64,000 nucleotides of DNA, taken from the NCBI RefSeq assembly GCF_000026545.1, contig NC_011601.1. The stretch is one strand, 5' to 3'. Below, in pieces: positions 28,821 to 56,328 of the stretch (its first letter is position 1; each line of letters opens with the position of its first letter). A program made the translations under genes and the position numbers. A model generated the notes under the pieces. That model had not been told where the DNA came from. It searched no databases and was given only the letters and a program-made list of their open reading frames with translations. This DNA comes from Escherichia coli O127:H6 str. E2348/69. GTDB taxonomy: Bacteria > Pseudomonadota > Gammaproteobacteria > Enterobacterales > Enterobacteriaceae.

Positions 28821-30110
28821 ATGTCGGATGACAAATTTGATGCCATTGTGGTCGGTGCGGGCGTTGCCGGTAGCGTTGCCGCACTGGTCATGGCGCGAGC
28901 CGGGCTGGATGTCCTGGTGATAGAACGCGGCGACAGTGCCGGATGTAAAAACATGACCGGCGGGCGTCTTTATGCCCACACACTCGAAGCAATTATTCCA
29001 GGCTTTGCAGCATCAGCGCCGATAGAACGCAAGGTCACACGCGAGAAAATCTCCTTCTTAACCGAAGAAAGCGCCGTTACCCTCGATTTTCACCGCGAGC
29101 AACCAGATGTTCCGCAACACGCGTCTTATACCGTATTGCGTAATCGTCTGGACCCGTGGTTGATGGAACAAGCCGAGCAGGCGGGCGCGCAGTTTATCCC
29201 GGGCGTACGCGTCGATGCACTGGTTCGTGAAGGAAACAAGGTCACTGGCGTCCAGGCCGGGGATGATATTCTCGAAGCGAATGTGGTGATTCTGGCTGAT
29301 GGCGTTAACTCGATGCTTGGCCGCTCGCTGGGAATGGTTTCCGCTTCCGATCCGCATCATTACGCTGTTGGTGTTAAAGAGGTTATAGGCCTGACACCAG
29401 AACAGATCAACGATCGCTTTAATGTTACGGGCGAGGAAGGTGCCGCCTGGCTGTTTGCCGGTTCCCCTTCTGACGGCCTGATGGGCGGCGGATTCCTCTA
29501 TACCAACAAGGATTCCGTATCGTTGGGGCTGGTTTGTGGATTGGGTGATATCGCCCATGCGCAAAAAAGCGTGCCGCAAATGCTGGAAGATTTTAAACAA
29601 CACCCCGCCATTCGCCCGCTGATTAGCGGCGGCAAACTGCTTGAATATTCCGCGCATATGGTGCCGGAGGGCGGTCTGGCAATGGTGCCGCAGCTGGTTA
29701 ACGATGGCGTGATGATCGTTGGTGACGCCGCAGGCTTCTGCCTGAATTTGGGTTTTACAGTTCGCGGCATGGATTTAGCCATTGCATCAGCTCAGGCTGC
29801 CGCCACAACGGTGATCGCCGCCAAAGAACGCGCGGATTTCTCCGCCAGCAGTCTGGCGCAATACAAACGTGAGCTGGAACAAAGTTGTGTTATGCGCGAT
29901 ATGCAGCATTTCCGCAAGATCCCGGCGCTGATGGAAAACCCGCGCCTGTTTAGCCAATACCCACGAATGGTCGCCGACATCATGAACGATATGTTCACCA
30001 TTGACGGCAAACCAAACCAGCCGGTACGCAAAATGATCATGGGACACGCGAAGAAAATTGGGCTGATCAACTTGCTGAAAGATGGCATTAAGGGAGCAAC
30101 CGCGCTATGA
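28821..30110 (+). CDS. ydiS: FAD-dependent oxidoreductase (FixC/ETF-QO-like) YdiS
   Basis: 429-aa ORF with N-terminal GAGVAG dinucleotide-binding motif. Confidence 0.85.
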   Translation: MSDDKFDAIVVGAGVAGSVAALVMARAGLDVLVIERGDSAGCKNMTGGRLYAHTLEAIIPGFAASAPIERKVTREKISFLTEESAVTLDFHREQPDVPQHASYTVLRNRLDPWLMEQAEQAGAQFIPGVRVDALVREGNKVTGVQAGDDILEANVVILADGVNSMLGRSLGMVSASDPHHYAVGVKEVIGLTPEQINDRFNVTGEEGAAWLFAGSPSDGLMGGGFLYTNKDSVSLGLVCGLGDIAHAQKSVPQMLEDFKQHPAIRPLISGGKLLEYSAHMVPEGGLAMVPQLVNDGVMIVGDAAGFCLNLGFTVRGMDLAIASAQAAATTVIAAKERADFSASSLAQYKRELEQSCVMRDMQHFRKIPALMENPRLFSQYPRMVADIMNDMFTIDGKPNQPVRKMIMGHAKKIGLINLLKDGIKGATAL

Positions 30111-46940: not shown

Positions 46941-49763
46941 ATGACGGCAGAGTACATCAGGGACTGGCAACAACCGCGCCACGCAGTGGGGCGTGAAGGA
47001 ACGGGGATCCCCGCTCCTGAATCCGCGCTTTCCTCCTGGCTGGATGCCTACCGGGCAGAGAACGAGCACCGCCAGGAAATGGCTGATGCGGCGTTCTCCG
47101 CCACGCCGCTGGGCAACCTGATTAATAAAAGCCTGGACGCACAGGAAAAACAGGACAAAACCATCACACTGGCAGGAGACGCCAGAAAACAGGCACGCGG
47201 CGCGGTGGATGAAGCCATGGCCTCGCTGCGCCTGCTGCCGTCCTATCTGCGCGATCCGCTTATTCGCCACCTCTCCTTCCTGCGCAAAAAACAGGAAGCC
47301 GATCGTCAGAAAGGAAAAAACGCCAGGCAGGCAGAACGCTATGCGCGTGGGACCCTGCGCAAAATATTCGAACGTCTGGAGCGCACCGATCACCGCTGGC
47401 TGACACCGGGTTATCGCTCCCTTGCCGGACGCGAACGCCTGGACGATTTGCTTTACCTGCCGCAGCTCAACAAACACCAGATAAAGACGCTGGCAACCAT
47501 GACGGCGGCGATGTTCAGCAGCACCTTCGAAAAACTCTGCGATGGCTTTGGCGCGACCGATGGCGAGCTGACCATGGATGTAACCCTGAAGGCGTATCAG
47601 ATGCTGGCCCGCATGGCGTTACACCTGCACGCCATGCCTCCACATTATGACGCACTGACAACAGACAAAGACCGGAGGAACGAACCGGACACGGAGCTGC
47701 TGCCGGGCGCAATCCTTCGCCTGACCTGTGCGGAATGGTGGAAACGCAAACTGTGGCTGTTACGTTGCGAGTGGAGAGAAGAACAACTCCGCGCCGCCTG
47801 TCTGGTTTCCAGAAAAACATCGCCCTATCTGAGCCAGGACGCGTTAAGCGAGTTTCGCGCACAGCGCGAGAAAACACGCGATTTCCTGAAAAGTTTCATG
47901 CTGGAAAACGAAGACGGGTTCACGATTGATCTCGAGACAGTGTATTACGCGGGAGTAAGTAACCCGGTTCACCGTAAGGCAGAAATGATGGCCACCATGA
48001 AGGGACTGGAACTTCTGGCCGAAGCCCGTGGCGACAGAGCGGTGTTTCTGACTGTCACCTGCCCGTCAAAATACCACGCAACAACGGAGAACGGTCATCC
48101 GAACCCCAAATGGAACGGGGCCACCATGCGCGACTCCAGCGATTACCTGGTTAACACGTTTTTTGCGGCGGTCCGCAAAAAACTGAACCGCGACGGCCTG
48201 CGCTGGTATGGCATCCGCACGGTGGAGCCTCACCATGACGGCACCGTGCACTGGCATATGATGGTCTTTGCTCATCCGGAAGAAATCGACAGCATCGTGA
48301 CCATCACCCGCGATATTGCCATTCAGGAAGACCGCCACGAGCTGGGCAATGATATTACTCCGCGCTTTAAGGTGGAGTACGTCGACGGCACCAAAGGCAC
48401 GCCAACCAGCTACATCGCCACCTACATCGGAAAAAACCTGGACAGCCGCGCCGTGGATGGCATCGACCCGAAAACGGGCAAACCACGCGTTGACCACGAA
48501 ACCGGAAAATCAATGGCCGAGAGCGTGGAGCGCGCCATCGGTTGGGCACGCCTTCACCGGGTCCGCCAGTTCCAGTTCTTTGGCATCCCCTCCCGTCAGG
48601 TGTGGCGTGAACTCCGCCGCCTTGCCAGCCAGATGGCACGCAACCCGGAAGGCCCGCAACGGCTGAAGGATGACGCAATGGATGCGGTACTCGCTGCCGC
48701 TGATGCCGGATGTTTTGCCACCTACATAGAGAAACAGGGCGGTGTACTTGTTCCACGCAAAGACTACCTGATTCGCACCGCCTACGACCTCGCCGATGAG
48801 CTGAACGATTACGGCGAACAGAGTGTACAGATTTACGGGATCTGGTCACCACTCATCGGGGAATCCTCCCGTGTGTGCACGCACCCGGATAACTGGAAGC
48901 TGGTAAGACGTAAACCGGAACAGGAAGGCAGCGCCCACGAAAATGGTTTTGACCTTCAGGGCGGCCCTGCCGCCCCTTGGACTCGTGGCAATAACTGTCC
49001 CCGTGTACAGGAAACGGACAACAACGGGACAGAACAGCCGGAAGAACGGCCAGCACCGTGGCCGCAGCTCCCTGACGGCGTTGAAGTGAACGAATGGGTG
49101 CGCTCACTGAAACGGCACGAACGCCGGGCGCTGATGCGTTCGCTTCGTGACAAACAGGCAAAAAACAGCAGTGATGAAATGCAGAGCTGGACACAGAGCC
49201 GCAAACAGCAGCGGCCTTTGCCTGATAACCACGAATTACTCGCTAAAGAATGGCGGGAGTCTGCTGAATCTCTCGGCCTGCATATCGGTGAACAGCAGAT
49301 GCAGCACCTGTTACGGGGCGGCAGCCTGTACGTTGACGGCAGCATCATTGCACCGCAGGGATATGAAATTGTACGTAAACCGGATACCCGCCCGGACAGC
49401 CGAATCACGCAGCTCTGGCAACGCCTGAGCCGTAACCACGGCGTAAGCAGCACGGAGATCCGCCATAACCCGGTCGCCAGCTATCTGGAACAACTAGGGG
49501 CATCAGACCCTGAAGCCGCCGCACGCCTGGCATCCACACTTCAGCAAGACCAGAACACCATGAAAACACCCGTTACCGTACTTTCTGACATGCTGCGCGC
49601 CATCCGCGACGCAGAGCACGAACAGAGAATCAGTGAAACAACTGAACGCGCCCGCCGCAAAGCAGACCTGCTGCGGGGTGGCCTGACCAGTGGAAACAAA
49701 AAACAGACAAAAACGGGATTCACAAATCCCGTAAATGAGCAAAAAACGCGCCGCGATATATGA
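46941..49763 (+). CDS. A: Rolling-circle replication initiator (P2 gpA-like HUH endonuclease), 940 aa
   Basis: HUH motif (GTVHWHMMVF) and Y-x3-Y active-site pair (YIATYIGKN) as in P2 A. Confidence 0.85.
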   Translation: MTAEYIRDWQQPRHAVGREGTGIPAPESALSSWLDAYRAENEHRQEMADAAFSATPLGNLINKSLDAQEKQDKTITLAGDARKQARGAVDEAMASLRLLPSYLRDPLIRHLSFLRKKQEADRQKGKNARQAERYARGTLRKIFERLERTDHRWLTPGYRSLAGRERLDDLLYLPQLNKHQIKTLATMTAAMFSSTFEKLCDGFGATDGELTMDVTLKAYQMLARMALHLHAMPPHYDALTTDKDRRNEPDTELLPGAILRLTCAEWWKRKLWLLRCEWREEQLRAACLVSRKTSPYLSQDALSEFRAQREKTRDFLKSFMLENEDGFTIDLETVYYAGVSNPVHRKAEMMATMKGLELLAEARGDRAVFLTVTCPSKYHATTENGHPNPKWNGATMRDSSDYLVNTFFAAVRKKLNRDGLRWYGIRTVEPHHDGTVHWHMMVFAHPEEIDSIVTITRDIAIQEDRHELGNDITPRFKVEYVDGTKGTPTSYIATYIGKNLDSRAVDGIDPKTGKPRVDHETGKSMAESVERAIGWARLHRVRQFQFFGIPSRQVWRELRRLASQMARNPEGPQRLKDDAMDAVLAAADAGCFATYIEKQGGVLVPRKDYLIRTAYDLADELNDYGEQSVQIYGIWSPLIGESSRVCTHPDNWKLVRRKPEQEGSAHENGFDLQGGPAAPWTRGNNCPRVQETDNNGTEQPEERPAPWPQLPDGVEVNEWVRSLKRHERRALMRSLRDKQAKNSSDEMQSWTQSRKQQRPLPDNHELLAKEWRESAESLGLHIGEQQMQHLLRGGSLYVDGSIIAPQGYEIVRKPDTRPDSRITQLWQRLSRNHGVSSTEIRHNPVASYLEQLGASDPEAAARLASTLQQDQNTMKTPVTVLSDMLRAIRDAEHEQRISETTERARRKADLLRGGLTSGNKKQTKTGFTNPVNEQKTRRDI

Positions 49764-49808
49764 AGCGCGCACAAAACAGGCGAAAACGGGATTTAAAAAT
49801 CCTGTAAC
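49710..49808. repeat. Two ~27-bp near-identical interrupted palindromes (aaaacgggattNANAAATCCNGTAA), candidate parC-like centromere or ori element
   Basis: Copy 1 at ~49710-49736 (inside the 3' end of A), copy 2 at ~49782-49808 (32 bp upstream of parM start). Confidence 0.45.
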
Positions 49809-49839
49809 CGATTAATTAATCAACATAAGGAAAAGCGAC

Positions 49840-50799
49840 ATGAAAATTTGTATCGACGACGGCTCCACCAACATCAAGCTGGCATGGACTGAGAACGGCG
49901 AACACCGCAACGCCATCAGCCCGAACAGCTTCAAGTCGGAATGGTCTGCGCCGTTCGGTGGCACGCAGCCCGCGAACTACATGCTTGATGGCGTGCGCTA
50001 TGGTTTTGATCCGGTCAGCGATCGCTTTGTCCAGACGACCGACACGCAATACCAGTACAGCGATGTGAATGTCATTGCCATTCATCATGCGCTGGTCAAA
50101 TCAGGCATCACGCCACAGGAGGTGGATGTGGTTGTCACCCTGCCACTGAGCGAGTATTTCGACACAAACGCACAGCCGGACATGGCCAACATCAACCGCA
50201 AAAAAGCGAACGTTATGCGCCCGGTGGAGTACCAAAACGGCGAGGCATTCACTATCCGTAACGTGCGGGTTATGCCTGAATCCATTCCGGCTGGCTTTAA
50301 AGCACTGGCTGACATGAGTCCGTTTGAATCCCTGCTGATTGTGGATTTGGGCGGAACCACGCTGGATGTGGCAAAGGTTCAGGGGCAACTGGCAGGTATC
50401 AGCCAGGTGTTTTGCGATCCACACGTAGGCGTTTCTCTGATGGCCGATGCCGTGCTGTCGGTGATGGCCACCAACGGTATGCGCACCAGTCACCACATCG
50501 CCAATACCATTATCGAACATCGCCACGATGAAGCCTGGCTGCGCCAGCACATCCACAATGACGCGCATTACGCCAGCCTGATGGCAGTTATTCGTGAAAA
50601 GGAGGAAACACTGAAACAACGCGTGATCCGCGCGCTGGCGGTTTTTTCGGGTTACGGGCGGGTGATGGTTGTCGGTGGAGGGGCGGAGATTGTGGCACCC
50701 GCTATCCGCGAAGCCTGCGGAGTTAATGCGACTTTCATCGCGGACGGGGTGCCACAGTTTGCTCTGGTTAATGGGCTGTACGCAATGGACAAGGAGTAA
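49840..50799 (+). CDS. parM: ParM/StbA-like actin-type partition ATPase
   Basis: IDDGSTNIKL...ISPNSFK...YSDVNVIAIHHAL...RKKANV...VMPESIPAG...DLGGTTLD...VVGGGAE closely parallels plasmid R1 ParM. Confidence 0.85.
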   Translation: MKICIDDGSTNIKLAWTENGEHRNAISPNSFKSEWSAPFGGTQPANYMLDGVRYGFDPVSDRFVQTTDTQYQYSDVNVIAIHHALVKSGITPQEVDVVVTLPLSEYFDTNAQPDMANINRKKANVMRPVEYQNGEAFTIRNVRVMPESIPAGFKALADMSPFESLLIVDLGGTTLDVAKVQGQLAGISQVFCDPHVGVSLMADAVLSVMATNGMRTSHHIANTIIEHRHDEAWLRQHIHNDAHYASLMAVIREKEETLKQRVIRALAVFSGYGRVMVVGGGAEIVAPAIREACGVNATFIADGVPQFALVNGLYAMDKE

Positions 50800-50803
50800 A
50801 CCA

Positions 50804-51115
50804 ATGACGACTCCAACCAGACGGATAAGTTTCTATCTGAAGCCCACCGCCGTCAAGAACGAAGGAGAAGCATGCGCCTGGCTGGACAGCCTTACACCAG
50901 AAGCCCGCAAAAGCGGCCAACGCGTGGCTTTTCTGGCCGGGCTGGCACTTCTGAAAATGAATCCGGCAGAGGCTTACCGACTGGCTGCATGGGCTGATGA
51001 TGAGGTGTTATCAGTGACACAAACCAAGACAGAACGCCCCGCGTCACAGCCAGTATCAACCGCACAGATAACCAGTCAGATGGCCGGAAATATCCGGGCG
51101 TTATTTCCTGAATAA
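50804..51115 (+). CDS. parR: ParR-like centromere-binding adaptor
   Basis: RRISFYLKP...WLDSLTPEARKSGQRVAFLAGLAL...RALFPE parallels R1 ParR (RTIAFKLNP...TLDSIP..RS..RAALTAGLAL...SLFPKE); internal-Met start. Confidence 0.7.
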   Translation: MTTPTRRISFYLKPTAVKNEGEACAWLDSLTPEARKSGQRVAFLAGLALLKMNPAEAYRLAAWADDEVLSVTQTKTERPASQPVSTAQITSQMAGNIRALFPE

Positions 51116-51493
51116 CATCAGGGCGTATTCGCCCTGCCACCAATCCCATAACATAAAGAACGGGGTGCAAATCACTATACACCCCGTTCCAATACAAACC
51201 ATCAGAAGATCTACACATCTTTCTCAAATGGCCAAGTAATCGAGCTGGTTCAGGAATAAGCATGCTGCCAACACAAGTGAAGGAGATAAAACTGTAGAAC
51301 TGATCAATCGTTGGAAACAAGTATTGACAGTATGTTCGAGTAACCCAACTGGATAGATTTTATGCTGATTATCCATACAGTAAAAAAGTAAGGATACTCT
51401 TTGAATTACGCCAGCAAGAGTGGTAACATTAGTCAATGATTTTCATTAATGTAGTTACCAGCTTACACAAGCTGATGTTTTATTGGGGGTTTT

Positions 51494-52576
51494 ATGGTAA
51501 ACGTGAGGGAGGATGAACTTTTCAAACTCATCGAGCAAGGCATCAAAGGCAACGCAAATGCATTTACACTCCTATGCAGAAAGATGATTAACAACATCCG
51601 TAAAAATGATGAGGCTTTAGCTTCTAAGCTGGCTTCGTTAGTTGCTGAGGGAACAGTATTACGTGGGGCATCTAGTAAGGCTCCTATGCCTGTGGATGGA
51701 GACTCCAGACGAAACCTTTTGCAGGAAACATCTGTCAACGCAATTGTTGAAGAACCTGTATGGAATACGGATATCTCAAAGAAGCTGGAGTCAATTGTTA
51801 ACGAAAGAGAGAATGCGGTTTCTTTGTTCAAAGCTGGTCTTGAACCTGTGAAGACGGTTTTACTTTCTGGCCCGCCAGGCGTAGGCAAAACAATGTCCGC
51901 ACATTGGCTTGCTGCAAAGTTAAATTTACCTCTTTTAACATTGGATCTCTCATCTGTAATGAGTTCTCTTTTGGGAAAAACAGGTAATAATATTAAATCC
52001 GTTATGGATTATGCCAAAGAGAAACCATGTGTCCTTTTGCTTGATGAATTTGATGCTGTTGCAAAAAGACGTGATGATGACAGGGACGTTGGAGAATTAA
52101 AACGTTTAGTTACTGTACTCCTACAGACCATAGATGAGTGGCCAGCGACCTCGCTTCTTGTTGCTGCGACTAATCACCCTGATATCTTAGATCCGGCTGT
52201 TTGGCGTCGATTTGAGCACATCCTTAAATTTAATATGCCATCAGTAGAACTGATAGATAGATATTTAGTCAATCATAATATTGAACCTGAACTATCTAAA
52301 AAACTTGCACCATTATTAGATGGCATGTCCTTTGCCATCATTAACCGTATTTTGAATTTCTCCAAAAAGAATGAGGTACTTAGAAATATTCCATTTGAAA
52401 GCTCATTAATAGAAGCCGTAATTACGGAGAGGGTTTCATTGGATGAGTTTAGCGATAATGATCTCAATATAATTAAATATCATTTTGACGGTTTTTCAAA
52501 TAGGAAGATAGCTGAATTAGTTGGTGTTTCACATCCAACAATCGCGAATAAATTACAAAAGTGGGGGATTAAATGA
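51494..52576 (+). CDS. Classic-clade AAA+ ATPase with C-terminal LuxR/GerE-like HTH (360 aa); candidate defence component
   Basis: Walker A GPPGVGKT (aa 126-133), Walker B LLLDEFD (aa 181-187), sensor-1 ATN, second-region-of-homology-like DILDPAVWRRFEH; C-terminal NRKIAELVGVSHPTIANKLQKWGI HTH. Confidence 0.85.
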   Translation: MVNVREDELFKLIEQGIKGNANAFTLLCRKMINNIRKNDEALASKLASLVAEGTVLRGASSKAPMPVDGDSRRNLLQETSVNAIVEEPVWNTDISKKLESIVNERENAVSLFKAGLEPVKTVLLSGPPGVGKTMSAHWLAAKLNLPLLTLDLSSVMSSLLGKTGNNIKSVMDYAKEKPCVLLLDEFDAVAKRRDDDRDVGELKRLVTVLLQTIDEWPATSLLVAATNHPDILDPAVWRRFEHILKFNMPSVELIDRYLVNHNIEPELSKKLAPLLDGMSFAIINRILNFSKKNEVLRNIPFESSLIEAVITERVSLDEFSDNDLNIIKYHFDGFSNRKIAELVGVSHPTIANKLQKWGIK

Positions 52577-54777
52577 TGGAAAGGAACTTACTTTTAGGTA
52601 ACGGTCATGTTCTGACAAAAAAGGAACCTTTGCCTAAAGGAAGGGATGGTAAGCGCTATCCCTATACTCTTGAAGAAGTAAGGGAGCATTTAAACCCAGA
52701 GATTGATACTTTACTCTCACGCTTTCGCAGTTTGGATGATGCGGCTAAGCCAAGGGGGGAGAGTGTATTCAATTTAACTTTACACCCAGCGTTTTTGGGT
52801 AAAAGCTACTTTCCGGAAGGATTGCTTAGAGCGACAGGTTTACGGGATGTCGGCAGCCGTCAGGTAATCATTCGCCCACGGAAAGCGGCACGTCAGTGCG
52901 ATCAGAATAAGGACTTAGTAACGGCGCAACTGTTTGTTAGCGGTGATGATGATGCCGTTATAAGATTTAAGGAAATTTTAAATTCCCCTACAGCTCCGAA
53001 GGGCGTACAAAAGGATTTGATCGAAATTGAAAGTGTTAGCTTTTTTGAAGGAAAAGAGAGAGCACGCAATTTTGAGCATGCGAAAAGTGATTTGATAAAA
53101 TTTGAAGTGGTTCTTCATGCTGGGGTTGAAGACGATGATATCGTTAAAGCCTATATTAGCTATGCGGCACAATATGATGTCTCTGTTGATTACAAAAGTA
53201 GAATCCAAGTTGGTGGGCTGACTTTCATCGTTGCACACGCGCGACCTGAAGATATGAAAAAAACACTCGATTTTTCATTAATCCGCGTTGTGCGGCCGAT
53301 GCCGTCTCTCAGGTGTACTCAGCCGAACATTGTCAGAAAGTTATCTAATATAGTTACACCGGAGCTCCCTAATTCTAAAGCTGTTCTTGAATCCGAACGT
53401 ATTGCCATTTTTGATGGTGGCTTGGGGACAGCTGACTTGAGTAATTGGGTTACGGAATACGTGTATCCAGACACCAAAGAAACAAGCGGATTATTATTGC
53501 AGCACGGTAATGAAGTGACATCCACTTTCTTATTCGGACGTGTCGAGGAAAATGCACCTTCTTTTAAAAGACCGTTTATGAATGTAGATCATTATAGAGT
53601 TCTTTCACCGACATCAGGTGACAATGGCAATTGGGATTTATTTGATGTCCTTAAGAAAATACAGTCCGTTCTTGATAGTGGTGACTATAAGTTCGCTAAT
53701 CTAAGTATTGGTCCTCATCTTCCAATTGGTGATGATGAGGTTCATGTATGGACTGCTGTTTTAGACCAAATCTGTGCTAAGCATGGGATATTACTTACTG
53801 TTGCTGTTGGGAATGATGGCAATGAGGACGGTGATGCAGCGAGAATACAACCTCCTTCCGATATGGTAAACGCGCTAGCGATTGGTGCTGCTGATCGTAG
53901 CGGTGAAAAATGGGGGCGGGCACCATATAGCTGTATTGGGCCAGGCAGAAGCCCCGGATTCGTTAAACCTGATGGTGTTATTTTTGGTGGAAGCGACGAC
54001 GAGCCTTTTTACACTTACAACCCTCTGCTTGGTTCTATAGTTGGAGTTCAAGGAACCAGTTATGCCTCTCCATTAGCATTGAGAACGGCCGCTGGAGTTG
54101 CGGCTCTATCAGGAACTCCATTGAACACCATTGCATTGAAAGCGTTGCTTGTTCATCATGCTGAAACATCAAGAAAATATTCGCGTGAACATATCGGTTG
54201 GGGACGGTTTAGTGAGGATCCTAACGTTTTAATCGATTGTCCAAATGATACTGCTACAGTAATTTACTATGGTTCATTAGCAAAAAATAAATATTTAAGG
54301 GCACCGATCCCATTCCCTGATGTTCCCTTTGACGAAGCATTTGAGCTTACCGCTACTTTATGCATTCAAACCCCAGTAGATCCTGAACATTCAGTAAACT
54401 ATACAAGGGCCGGTATGCAGGTAACTTTCCGCCCAAGATTCGGCCTTGACGATACCGATACAGATGATTTCTTTGGTCAAAAAAGCCAGTATAAGACTGA
54501 AAGGGAGTGTAGGAGTGAAGGTCATAAGTGGGAAACTTGTTTGCACAGAAGCAAAAAGTTCAGTGCTGATACATTATTAAGCGATCCAGTTTTTGATATA
54601 CGGTATCATGCCCGAGATTCTTCGCGCCATGTTAAGGGAGTTTCAGCCCCTGATATGCAATATGCGATGGTAATAAGCGTAAGGGTAAAAGACTTTGATT
54701 TATATAATGTTATTCGCCAGCGATATACAATTCTGAATCCTATTCAACTGCGCACACAAATTTCTCTCGACACGTAA
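52573..54777 (+). CDS. Subtilisin-like (S8) serine peptidase, 734 aa, no signal peptide; candidate defence effector
   Basis: Catalytic order D-H-N-S: IAIFDGG (D281), HGNEVTS (H311), VAVGNDG (N414), GTSYASPLA (S496); ~270-aa N-terminal and ~230-aa C-terminal regions unassigned; start overlaps ATPase stop (ATGA). Confidence 0.85.
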   Translation: MMERNLLLGNGHVLTKKEPLPKGRDGKRYPYTLEEVREHLNPEIDTLLSRFRSLDDAAKPRGESVFNLTLHPAFLGKSYFPEGLLRATGLRDVGSRQVIIRPRKAARQCDQNKDLVTAQLFVSGDDDAVIRFKEILNSPTAPKGVQKDLIEIESVSFFEGKERARNFEHAKSDLIKFEVVLHAGVEDDDIVKAYISYAAQYDVSVDYKSRIQVGGLTFIVAHARPEDMKKTLDFSLIRVVRPMPSLRCTQPNIVRKLSNIVTPELPNSKAVLESERIAIFDGGLGTADLSNWVTEYVYPDTKETSGLLLQHGNEVTSTFLFGRVEENAPSFKRPFMNVDHYRVLSPTSGDNGNWDLFDVLKKIQSVLDSGDYKFANLSIGPHLPIGDDEVHVWTAVLDQICAKHGILLTVAVGNDGNEDGDAARIQPPSDMVNALAIGAADRSGEKWGRAPYSCIGPGRSPGFVKPDGVIFGGSDDEPFYTYNPLLGSIVGVQGTSYASPLALRTAAGVAALSGTPLNTIALKALLVHHAETSRKYSREHIGWGRFSEDPNVLIDCPNDTATVIYYGSLAKNKYLRAPIPFPDVPFDEAFELTATLCIQTPVDPEHSVNYTRAGMQVTFRPRFGLDDTDTDDFFGQKSQYKTERECRSEGHKWETCLHRSKKFSADTLLSDPVFDIRYHARDSSRHVKGVSAPDMQYAMVISVRVKDFDLYNVIRQRYTILNPIQLRTQISLDT

Positions 54778-54784
54778 TTTTTAT

Positions 54785-54806
54785 GGCCGCGAAAGCGGCC
54801 TTTTTT
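54785..54806 (+). terminator. Rho-independent terminator after the peptidase gene
   Basis: ggccgc-gaaa-gcggcc hairpin followed by T6. Confidence 0.65.
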
Positions 54807-54953
54807 CTGTAATTTTTTTATGAATTTACATGCACGATAGTGCACAAATTTGCACAATTTTTTTGAACGAATTTTTGCCCTTCTGGCCCGCGTGGCGGCT
54901 GGATCCGTCAGGGATCCGTGCGTGCACAAAAAAACGCGCTTTTTCTGCGCGCA

Positions 54954-55281: not shown

Positions 55282-56328
55282 TCAGGATGTGGGCTGGGTG
55301 TCTAACAGTGCGTAAGGGTTAAAGCGGATCACCTCTTCGCCAAGCCAGTCATTGATGTGCTTCATAGCCTCCATAACGGGCATCAGCTCGTTAATTGCAT
55401 AAACCCGCGCGGCCTTCTCCACATCACCAAACGCACTTTTTTCGCCCGGCATCGCCCCCATCAGTTGCGGCGGAACGCGGTGCGCAGCCAGTACATCATC
55501 ACGGGATGCCGCCTTAACATTCATGAACTCATCCTTTGCGGTGATCTGCTGGAACGGCAAAATTTGCACCCCCTCTTTGCCCCCGTTGGGCGCATGAATG
55601 AGCACGTTTTTAAATGCACCACCACCACGCGCACCCTGTAACGTTTCTTTCAGGGAGTCCATGCTTTCGCGGTTTACCTGCGCTGCACCGATGTAGATGA
55701 TGCACCCGGCGTGGGATCCGTTGTCGTAGTACAGTTTTCTGAACATGTCCGCCGAATGAGAAAGGCTGGCCGAGAGTAATGCGCCAAGATATTCCGGCAT
55801 GCCGTAGATTTCCTGGTTAATATCCGGATTCATCAGGTGGCATACTTTGCCAGGGCGAAACTGAAACGCGTCCTTACCATCCTGCACATACCACCATGAT
55901 TCAAGATCGCTTCCGCGTCGCATGTATTTCGCCAGGGCGTGCCGTAATTTAAGCGGTTCGCCGAGCATATTGCTTCGAAGCTCAAGGAATGCATTACCGA
56001 ACACAAACCAGTCCAGCGCCAGCGCCGAGAAATCCTGCCGGGAAAGCAGCGGGTGCGGGATGTAGCAACCGAGTAATACATTGCGCTTAAAGTAAAGCGC
56101 AGACTGATGCCAGGACGTTTGCCGGGCTGCTCTTGCCAGACCGTACCAGTCCACCGGGGTTTCATACCACCGCCCGTTATCAGCACAGTACATATTGTCC
56201 AGCAGGTCATGCCCGGTCAGGCGATAAGGACCATCAAATGTGAATGCACTGAGCGATGATTCTTTCCTGAGCGCATCAGCGAGATCAATGCGTGAACTCA
56301 TGCGCACTTTTTTGTTTTTTCTGCTCAT
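55282..56328 (-). CDS. Q: Portal protein (P2 gpQ-like)
   Basis: 348-aa ORF, size and position as P2 Q, paired with P on minus strand. Confidence 0.88.
   Translation of the reverse strand: MSRKNKKVRMSSRIDLADALRKESSLSAFTFDGPYRLTGHDLLDNMYCADNGRWYETPVDWYGLARAARQTSWHQSALYFKRNVLLGCYIPHPLLSRQDFSALALDWFVFGNAFLELRSNMLGEPLKLRHALAKYMRRGSDLESWWYVQDGKDAFQFRPGKVCHLMNPDINQEIYGMPEYLGALLSASLSHSADMFRKLYYDNGSHAGCIIYIGAAQVNRESMDSLKETLQGARGGGAFKNVLIHAPNGGKEGVQILPFQQITAKDEFMNVKAASRDDVLAAHRVPPQLMGAMPGEKSAFGDVEKAARVYAINELMPVMEAMKHINDWLGEEVIRFNPYALLDTQPTS

Follow-up and report, generated by a model that had tools for sequence, protein, structure and literature searches.

Which cis-acting site serves a partition system that is carried by an integrating phage rather than by a plasmid? 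The textbook example of a DNA segregation machine built on an actin-like protein is ParMRC, for which the centromeres described to date are direct-repeat arrays on plasmids. A stretch of 64,000 nt from Escherichia coli O127:H6 str. E2348/69 (NC_011601.1; hereafter the window) contains a parM-parR pair in a P2-like prophage, downstream of the replication gene A. The cis site of this system bears on why an integrating phage keeps a partition system, be it for an episomal carrier state or for the positioning of replicating genomes, as well as on how few ParR sites make a working segrosome and on whether ParR reads inverted half-sites. No definition of the cis site of a ParMR system of the P88 type, to which this prophage belongs, was found in the literature searched. 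An earlier note on the window had pointed to two copies of an interrupted palindrome, which bridge the 3' end of gene A and the parM leader, as candidates for a ParR-binding centromere (parC) and/or a replication-origin element. Judged from sequence comparison, the two palindromes (hereafter dyads) are a candidate ParR-binding centromere of the phage ParMR system, a reading that we favour with some reserve, and they probably also serve as operator. It is favoured because the dyads immediately precede genuine parM and parR genes, where a parC is canonically found (PMC5016525), because dyad positions and the 72-73 bp spacing are conserved across genera, because the site segregates with parMR in mosaic prophages, because 10.5-bp A-tract phasing resembles that of plasmid R1 parC, and because nearly all related loci retain both dyads with near-invariant arms and variable centres.

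A pair of dyads between gene A and parM

The element consists of two repeat units, each closed by a dyad, and is followed by the parM leader:

49697-49734, plus strand: repeat unit 1, 38 nt, composed of the A-tract leader CAAAAAACAGACAAAA and dyad 1; it forms the final ~20 codons of gene A
49713-49732, no strand: dyad 1, candidate ParR site, ACGGGATT-CACA-AATCCCGT, with the core GGG-N10-CCC
49746-49771, no strand: GC-rich inverted stretch, the variable inter-dyad spacer, cgcgccgcg-atatatgaa-gcgcgc, which holds the gene A stop codon
49770-49807, plus strand: repeat unit 2, 38 nt, composed of CACAAAACAGGCGAAA and dyad 2; intergenic
49786-49805, no strand: dyad 2, candidate ParR site, ACGGGATT-TAAA-AATCCTGT, the majority allele of the right arm among relatives being AATCCCGT
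49811-49834, plus strand: conserved parM leader, the motif ATTAATTAATCAA followed by the Shine-Dalgarno sequence AAGGAAAAG of parM

Both palindrome copies can be read directly in the region (49690-49842, ...gtggaaaCAAAAAACAGACAAAAACGGGATTCACAAATCCCGTAAatgagcaaaaaacgcgccgcgatatatgaagcgcgCACAAAACAGGCGAAAACGGGATTTAAAAATCCTGTAAccgattaattaatcaacataaggaaaagcgacATG). A repeat search of the window returned a direct repeat of 38 nt with 84% identity between its copies, which start 73 bp apart (about 72 bp had been proposed), and the 20-bp palindrome at the end of each unit has 8-bp arms, ACGGGATT and AATCC(C/T)GT, around a 4-nt centre. The earlier description of a 27-bp element with an N5 spacer needs correction, as the element that was written out comprises 25 nt (copy 1, aaaacgggattcacaaatcccgtaa, 49710-49734; copy 2, aaaacgggatttaaaaatcctgtaa, 49783-49807) and contains the 20-bp palindrome, while the repeat itself is longer and the N5 pattern has 0 matches. 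With an N4 spacer, the pattern has exactly two sites in the 64 kb and none further even at 3 mismatches; 0.91 matches with 3 mismatches to the 20-bp pattern would be expected by chance, and the real sites carry 0-1 mismatches. The placement of the copies had been described correctly: copy 1 lies within gene A (open reading frame (ORF) 46941-49763, stop codon TGA at 49761-49763), copy 2 falls in the 76-bp spacer between A and parM, just upstream of the parM start at 49840, and the GC-rich inverted stretch cgcgccgcg...gcgcgc is present between them (~49747-49770). Dyad 2 occupies the positions 35-54 nt 5' of the parM start codon, ~24 nt before the ribosome-binding site.

The segment 49690-49814 has a strong AA/TT periodicity at 10.5 bp, with a power of 2.75 that was reached by 0 of 2000 mononucleotide shuffles and ranks second among the loci found in 6388 sliding 125-bp windows of the 64 kb. 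The A-tract phasing of R1 parC is comparable (power 2.55), and the Hafnia and Plesiomonas loci introduced below do not show 10.5-bp AA phasing.

ParM, ParR and the predicted recognition strand

The genes on either side of dyad 2 were assigned as follows:

46941-49763, plus strand: gene A, P2-type replication endonuclease of 940 amino acids (PHROG 91 'nicking at origin of replication', 5.9e-277)
49840-50799, plus strand: parM, actin-like partition ATPase of 319 amino acids (Pfam StbA_N 3.7e-82, ParM_N 9.8e-69; PHROG 691 partition protein)
50804-51115, plus strand: parR, ribbon-helix-helix (RHH) centromere-binding adaptor of 103 amino acids (Pfam PF10784, E 8.5e-24)

The candidate cis site stands immediately upstream of genes for an actin-like ParM and an RHH ParR with a ParM-binding tail, and its placement before parM recurs in Hafnia and Plesiomonas. 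The window ParM is 47% identical to that of R1 (loci L026/L027). A profile of the window ParR and its relatives matches the structure of pB171 ParR (2JD3, E 4.8e-19), the N-terminal beta-strand reads RRISFYLKP, and the C-terminal tail reads NIRALFPE, with N-x-R-x-L-F-P kept in the alignment; a ParR tail of this type binds ParM in R1 (PMC5016525).

Phage-type ParRs have the predicted recognition strand R-R/K-I/V-S-F-Y-L-K/N-P in common and occur with sites that begin with GGGA, whereas iteron-type plasmid ParRs bear other strands (RRTIAFKLNP in R1, RRKILFYINP in others). This pairing of strand and site agrees with ParR reading the dyads, as a correlation only and not as covariation. Among the E. 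coli alleles of ParR, the first 14 residues are identical (MTTPTRRISFYLKP), with scattered N-terminal changes at positions 4 and 15-16 (up to ~17), and all alleles stand behind the same dyads, while the C-terminal two thirds are hypervariable.

The variation extends to the ParM-binding tail, for which the alleles NIRALFPE, NIQAFFPE, NIQTLFPE and NIQSFFPE occur next to ParM proteins that are 98-99% identical (loci L215-L218). A hypervariable ParR C-terminus beside a steady ParM suggests either a recombination boundary in parR or diversifying selection on the adaptor. The window ParR is itself atypical in its centre, where residues ~50-70 (50950-51010) lack the near-invariant D-x-R-L-P-x-L-L and read KMNPAEAYRLAAW, and it is 13-44 residues shorter than its aligned relatives; a frameshift does not account for this, as the other frames contain stop codons.

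Position and spacing are kept across genera

DNA-level searches of the phage collection for near as well as distant matches returned only 14 near-identical P88-like records, too similar for a useful comparison, and tblastn with the C-terminus of A returned the same 14; a scan of viral contigs with a ParM alignment was dominated by E. coli loci with 98-100% identity, and a scan of viral contigs with the Hafnia ParM gave no matches. Divergent lineages were gathered instead by searching genome contigs that encode homologs. ParM relatives at 54-62% identity are all located in P2-like prophages, downstream of gene A, and the dyads of three lineages compare as follows:

E. coli (window): dyads at -125 and -52 from the parM ATG, spacing 73 bp, GGG-N10-CC(C/T)
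Hafnia, two variants: dyads at -128 and -55 from the parM ATG, spacing 73 bp, GGG-N10-CC(C/T)
Plesiomonas: dyads at -131 and -59 from the parM ATG, spacing 72 bp, GGG-N10-CC(C/T)

The dyad positions are thus kept across the three genera though ParM identity is just 62%, and no similarity between E. coli, Hafnia and Plesiomonas is seen in the 56-57 nt that separate the dyads. Between -400 and +1000 of the Hafnia and Plesiomonas loci, no further GGG-N10-CCC was found. In a third Hafnia variant (L219, 1072-1545), an ORF of 93 amino acids is inserted ahead of parM, and the dyads, still 73 bp apart, head a three-gene operon.

Within a lineage the paired copies are alike (GGGATT-N4-AATCCC twice in E. 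coli, GGGACAACA(A/C)(A/T)AACCC twice in Plesiomonas), while the inner dyad bases differ between lineages. The Plesiomonas copies, GGGACAACAAAAACCC and GGGACAACACTAACCC, have a self-complementarity of 3-4 bp around a 10-nt loop and hence lack a stable hairpin, so that what is conserved is a 16-bp duplex element with GGG and CCC ends rather than a hairpin, which favours a protein site on duplex DNA. A further motif, TTAATCAA, recurs in the leaders of all three genera at a distance of 12-15 nt past dyad 2, and is a candidate -10 element or 5'-untranslated-region element. The leader and Shine-Dalgarno segment is duplicated in the third Hafnia variant (CTATTAACCAGAGGGAG... and ATATTAATCAAAAAAGGAATG...).

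The site travels with parMR

Natural mosaics separate the dyads from gene A, while the link to parMR is retained. In L102, an A protein of 871 amino acids is followed by an ORF of 155 amino acids that is joined at its 3' end to the par module exactly at AAAAACAGAC (window ~49699); this junction places the left edge of the par module at the left edge of repeat 1, and implies that the module supplies the final ~20 codons to whichever gene lies upstream. In L211 and L212, a methyltransferase gene and a small ORF stand between A and the par site, which remains with parMR. Conversely, gene A of the E. coli prophage L210 has another 3' end that lacks the dyad, and parMR is absent as well. In L209, a replacement that begins just past the A stop codon (break at 49768) has removed parMR and dyad 2, so that only dyad 1 is left over. 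A precise 73-bp inter-repeat deletion in L049/L208 (IMGVR_UViG_2657245439_000011, ~3437 in L049) creates a single hybrid dyad and a new gene A stop codon.

The population set comprised 162 fetched E. coli-type loci, which are redundant and represent 86 distinct haplotypes. Both dyads are kept in 160 of the 162 loci, and they are exactly 73 bp apart in 155. Over the 86 haplotypes the cores GGGA(T/C)T and AATCCC are nearly invariant, the outermost dyad base pair varies, and the 4-nt centre of dyad 2 varies (TAAA, TCAG, TGAA, CCAG) with the arms kept; polymorphism is highest in the central GC-rich stretch (for example GCGATATAT to CATAAAACA).

A likely replication origin upstream of the dyads

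The origin half of the earlier proposal did not hold up, in contrast to its parC half, which is the better supported one given the identity of ParM and ParR, the position and spacing across genera and the co-segregation with parMR. The nick site of P2 A is annotated at position 29892 of NC_001895 (GCGCCTC|GGAGTCCTGTCAATAAC), and the alignment with the P2 ori region that had been proposed as a check maps it not to the dyads but ~715 bp upstream of dyad 1:

48969-49000, plus strand: homolog of the P2 ori nick site, GCCGCCCCTTGGACTCGTGGCAATAACTGTCC, located by A-protein alignment (window A residues ~675-687)

This segment is likely the true origin, separate from the dyad element. The window A and P2 A share 30% identity across 744 aligned positions. 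All gene A loci fetched carry the nick motif, which differs by 2-7 substitutions; they come from E. coli, Hafnia, Plesiomonas, Serratia and Enterobacter, and from P2 itself. The nick-site sequence thus lies outside 49710-49808, and the dyads are not conserved along with gene A: dyads of this kind were not found at the end of P2 gene A, and the A gene of L210 keeps the nick motif without them. Telling the origin (48969-49000) apart from the par leader matters for prophage annotation and for the building of mini-replicons. The nick-site core TGKCAATAACTGT is kept at the DNA level in gene A despite an identity of only ~30% between the A proteins and P2 A, and the motif could be useful as a marker for origin annotation in Peduoviridae.

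Alternative explanations for the dyads

A palindrome may also act as a nucleic-acid hairpin, here as a signal for RNA processing, stability or attenuation in the early A-parMR transcript, or as a leftward intrinsic terminator, which we consider unlikely. Each palindrome could form an 8-bp stem, copy 1 scores terminator-like on the minus strand, where the hairpin is followed by TTTTTGTCTG, and the 153-nt region folds better than its shuffles (z = -3.6 for the plus and -2.5 for the minus strand); moreover, the C/T polymorphism at 49803 retains a G-U pair on the plus strand, and Serratia-type sites likewise have A-runs ahead of their palindromes. The fold of lowest free energy has the two dyads paired with each other, which is expected of any two palindrome copies and was not used as evidence. 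However, the plus strand lacks a U-tract after either hairpin, and on the minus strand there is nothing to terminate, as parM, parR and ietAS are all encoded on the plus strand: although copy 1 fits the pattern of an intrinsic terminator there, no minus-strand gene lies upstream, and the pattern is not conserved in Hafnia and Plesiomonas, where GGG-N10-CCC stands at the same positions but neither the capacity to form a stem nor the T/A runs beside it are retained. Arm substitutions are non-compensatory over the 86 haplotypes, among which no compensatory double changes were seen; T49719C (33% of haplotypes) leaves C opposite A on the plus strand, and a mismatch on one or the other strand results from G-to-A changes. 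A search of 49000-51500 against Rfam in E-value mode returned no family, which also counts against the hairpin reading. If the dyads are then taken as duplex protein sites, they might bind a protein other than ParR, such as an early or late phage regulator or a host factor, and be a pure operator for parMR or the downstream cargo, while the true centromere would lie elsewhere or not exist. The operon always begins with the dyad pair, even with the extra ORF before parM in L219, palindromes are more typical of classical repressors, ParR has so far been shown on direct repeats (PMC9426499), and the binding of ParR to the dyads is a prediction. This alternative is nevertheless improbable, as the element co-occurs strictly with parMR and with no other fixed neighbour, since upstream lie A, the ORF of 155 or 167 amino acids or the methyltransferase gene, and the downstream cargo varies; ParR is the sole DNA-binding protein encoded in the conserved module, and it normally autoregulates through parC (PMC5016525).

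The mosaics could alternatively be taken to mean that the repeats are a functionless recombination scar or module boundary of the cargo hotspot after gene A, which arose by a 73-bp tandem duplication. Breakpoints do lie at or beside the repeats (49699 in L102, 49768 in L209), a 73-bp deletion between the repeats occurs naturally, and the position after gene A is a known cargo site, occupied here by IetAS. Yet a neutral duplication would not be expected to hold its positions and its 72-73 bp spacing in Hafnia and Plesiomonas amid diverged surroundings, nor would the retention in 160 of 162 loci with near-invariant arms or the helical phasing of A-tracts be expected of a scar, and we regard this explanation as very improbable. 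Hardly any weight is given to the idea that the dyads assist the rolling-circle origin as an accessory element, serving as a binding or enhancer site of the A protein or as a lagging-strand initiation signal. It would fit with the position of dyad 1 inside the 3' end of gene A, with the location of the P2 origin inside A, which acts in cis according to the annotation of the P2 record, and with the capability of hairpins to serve as single-strand initiation signals. It conflicts with the nick-site homolog ~715 bp upstream that is kept in all A genes tested, with the end of P2 A, which is devoid of dyads, with L210, in which A has the nick motif but not the dyad-encoding tail, and with L211, L212 and L219, in which the element is parted from A by other genes and remains with the par operon.

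Points against a ParR-binding centromere

The centromere reading itself has to account for several observations that weigh against it. A parC is defined by tandem direct repeats upstream of parM (PMC5016525), as a rule an array of direct iterons of ~10-20 bp in usually 4-10 copies, and no such array is present here, where only two 38-nt direct repeats are found, each an inverted half-site pair, and the degenerate 10.5-bp A-tract units are not clear iterons. All characterised ParRs bind direct repeats according to a 2022 study (PMC9426499). The link between ParR and the DNA is correlative, drawn from the pairing of sequences, and the beta-strand is invariant in the E. coli clade, leaving no variation for covariation of ParR and site. 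Serratia/Enterobacter-type relatives are laid out otherwise, with one 19-bp inverted repeat whose arms are ~30 nt apart (AAAAAC-GGGAACGAWATAGAAAAAT, ~30 nt, ATTTTTCTRTTTCGTTCCC; spanning -118 to -52). In the E. coli population, a minor-allele frequency of >=5% is reached at 4 of 32 arm sites and at 4 of 34 leader sites, so that conservation of the arms does not clearly exceed that of the 3' flank, and one repeat has been lost naturally through the 73-bp deletion. The promoter search carries no weight in either direction, since the scan that returned no sigma-70 consensus for any of the phage-type leaders finds one plasmid-type par promoter yet misses the known one of R1.

Two promoter candidates were examined and rejected. 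For the first, which lies between the dyads (TGAGCA...GATATAT), the -10-like GATATAT is changed to ATAAAAC in several haplotypes, and the promoter scan was empty. The second would draw its -35 element from the middle of dyad 2, which is TTTAAA in some haplotypes and TTTCAG in others. Transcription of parMR may come from the early operon by way of A, or start at a weak promoter that overlaps dyad 2, or both.

Comparison with known partition sites

Plasmid ParM homologs at 47-53% identity, including that of R1, have two blocks of 11-bp-spaced iterons around a promoter. R1 parC resembles the phage element in being a cis site directly upstream of parM-parR with two repeat-bearing blocks around a non-repeat core, in its A/C-rich composition with A-tracts phased at 10-11 bp, and in its iterons, which end in ...AAACCC, like the right half-sites here (...AAATCCC); besides the related ParM, the ParR proteins are in the same Pfam family and have the same C-terminal ParM-binding tail. 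It differs in that R1 has ten 11-bp direct iterons (5+5), whereas the two 38-nt units here contain one inverted half-site pair each, that is four half-sites in total. Furthermore, R1 has a strong promoter in the core, as opposed to no recognisable sigma-70 promoter here (by the scan that misses that of R1, too), and is a plasmid, while the left unit here sits in the coding end of an upstream gene of an integrating P2-like phage.

For other ParRs, the reported minimum is two 11-bp repeats in R1, while the ParR of pB171 uses two 10-bp repeats and the repeats of pSK41 are 20 bp long (PMC5016525, PMC9426499). The ParR of pB171 par1 (2JD3) is the closest solved ParR by sequence profile, and the system is similarly minimal, with reportedly just two 10-bp repeats upstream of parM (PMC9426499); these repeats are direct, unlike the dyads here, and the strand is KKYTLYL instead of RRISFYL. 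The srpMRC system of SXT/R391 integrative and conjugative elements is likewise a type II partition system on a normally chromosome-integrated element. Its repeats bind the adaptor SrpR in electrophoretic mobility shift assays (PMC4489591), while the dyads are known from sequence, and SrpR is without detectable ParR homology, in contrast to the clear PF10784 ParR encoded by the phage. AlpAC/alpS of the Corynebacterium glutamicum prophage CGP3 comprises an actin-like filament and an adaptor binding its own upstream sites and reportedly serves phage DNA transport and replication, not plasmid inheritance (PMC4446434, PMC5539076). It belongs to the Actinobacteria, with unrelated proteins and site sequences, and would be comparable by functional analogy only.

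A candidate two-dyad centromere

With ParR as the ligand of the dyads, the following sequence of events can be envisaged. ParR dimers would insert the RHH beta-ribbon (RRISFYL) into the major groove at GGGA-type half-sites; the distance of 73 bp corresponds to ~7 helical turns, which would place both dyads on the same face of a DNA that is curved by the 10.5-bp-phased A-tracts. ParR bound at both dyads could then compact the 110-bp segment, by bridging or wrapping, into a single partition complex, whose C-terminal N-x-R-x-L-F-P tails would capture the growing ends of ParM filaments, and the filaments might push or position circular phage DNA, be it excised or replicating genomes or an episomal state. 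Dyad 2 is close to the parM start codon and ribosome-binding site, so that parMR expression, too, may be damped by this complex. Observed in the sequences are the repeats, the retention of their position, spacing and linkage, and the assignment of ParM and ParR; we infer the binding and bridging by ParR, as well as any effects on segregation and expression, from the layout of the site.

A more far-reaching proposal, which is tentative and which we consider possible but doubtful, is that P88-type P2-like phages as a group have a minimal two-dyad centromere, in which an RHH ParR reads inverted half-sites 7 turns apart instead of a direct-iteron array, and in which the location of the left site in the coding end of the upstream gene could allow transcription or translation of the early operon to switch the complex on or off. 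If true, a widespread prophage family (in about a quarter of complete E. coli genomes) would gain an actively segregated episomal phase or actin-driven positioning of its replicating DNA.

Prophage context and further observations

The prophage is P88-like (Xuanwuvirus, Peduoviridae, P2-family), as DNA-level matches are limited to P88-like phages, and the locus is carried by 1369 of 5426 complete E. coli genomes, O157:H7 strains among them, in a nearly always chromosomal location. P88 carries partition genes and may have episomal as well as integrated states, according to Pfeifer et al. (PMC7969092). The same A-parM-parR region is also found in a 4.8-kb stretch inspected in NZ_CP148288.1 (L214; deposited as plasmid pZ1323PEC0009-2 of an E. 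coli isolate, in PLSDB), a circle of 34,461 bp, which is the size of a P88-like phage genome, and this circle could represent an episome or a replicative form that was captured.

Downstream of parR, a co-directional gene pair (51494-54777) was identified by PADLOC as IetA (AAA ATPase, 3.6e-89) and IetS (S8 peptidase, 6.6e-41); its matches to the NCBIfam IteA/IteS models are below the curated cut-offs, which marks it as a divergent IetAS in the P2 cargo hotspot. In L210, a related pair of AAA ATPase and S8 peptidase genes stands directly after gene A, in a locus without parMR. The stop codon of IetS is followed at 54780-54930 by a terminator-like hairpin (ggccgcgaaagcggcctttttt) and then by the strongest 10.5-bp A/T-tract phasing of the 64-kb window. 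TGCAC boxes ~10 bp apart occur near 54831, 54842 and 54852, as well as near 54924, and the stretch lies upstream of a portal gene on the minus strand (55282-56328), so that 54780-54930 could be a cos/terminase recognition region or a late-promoter region.

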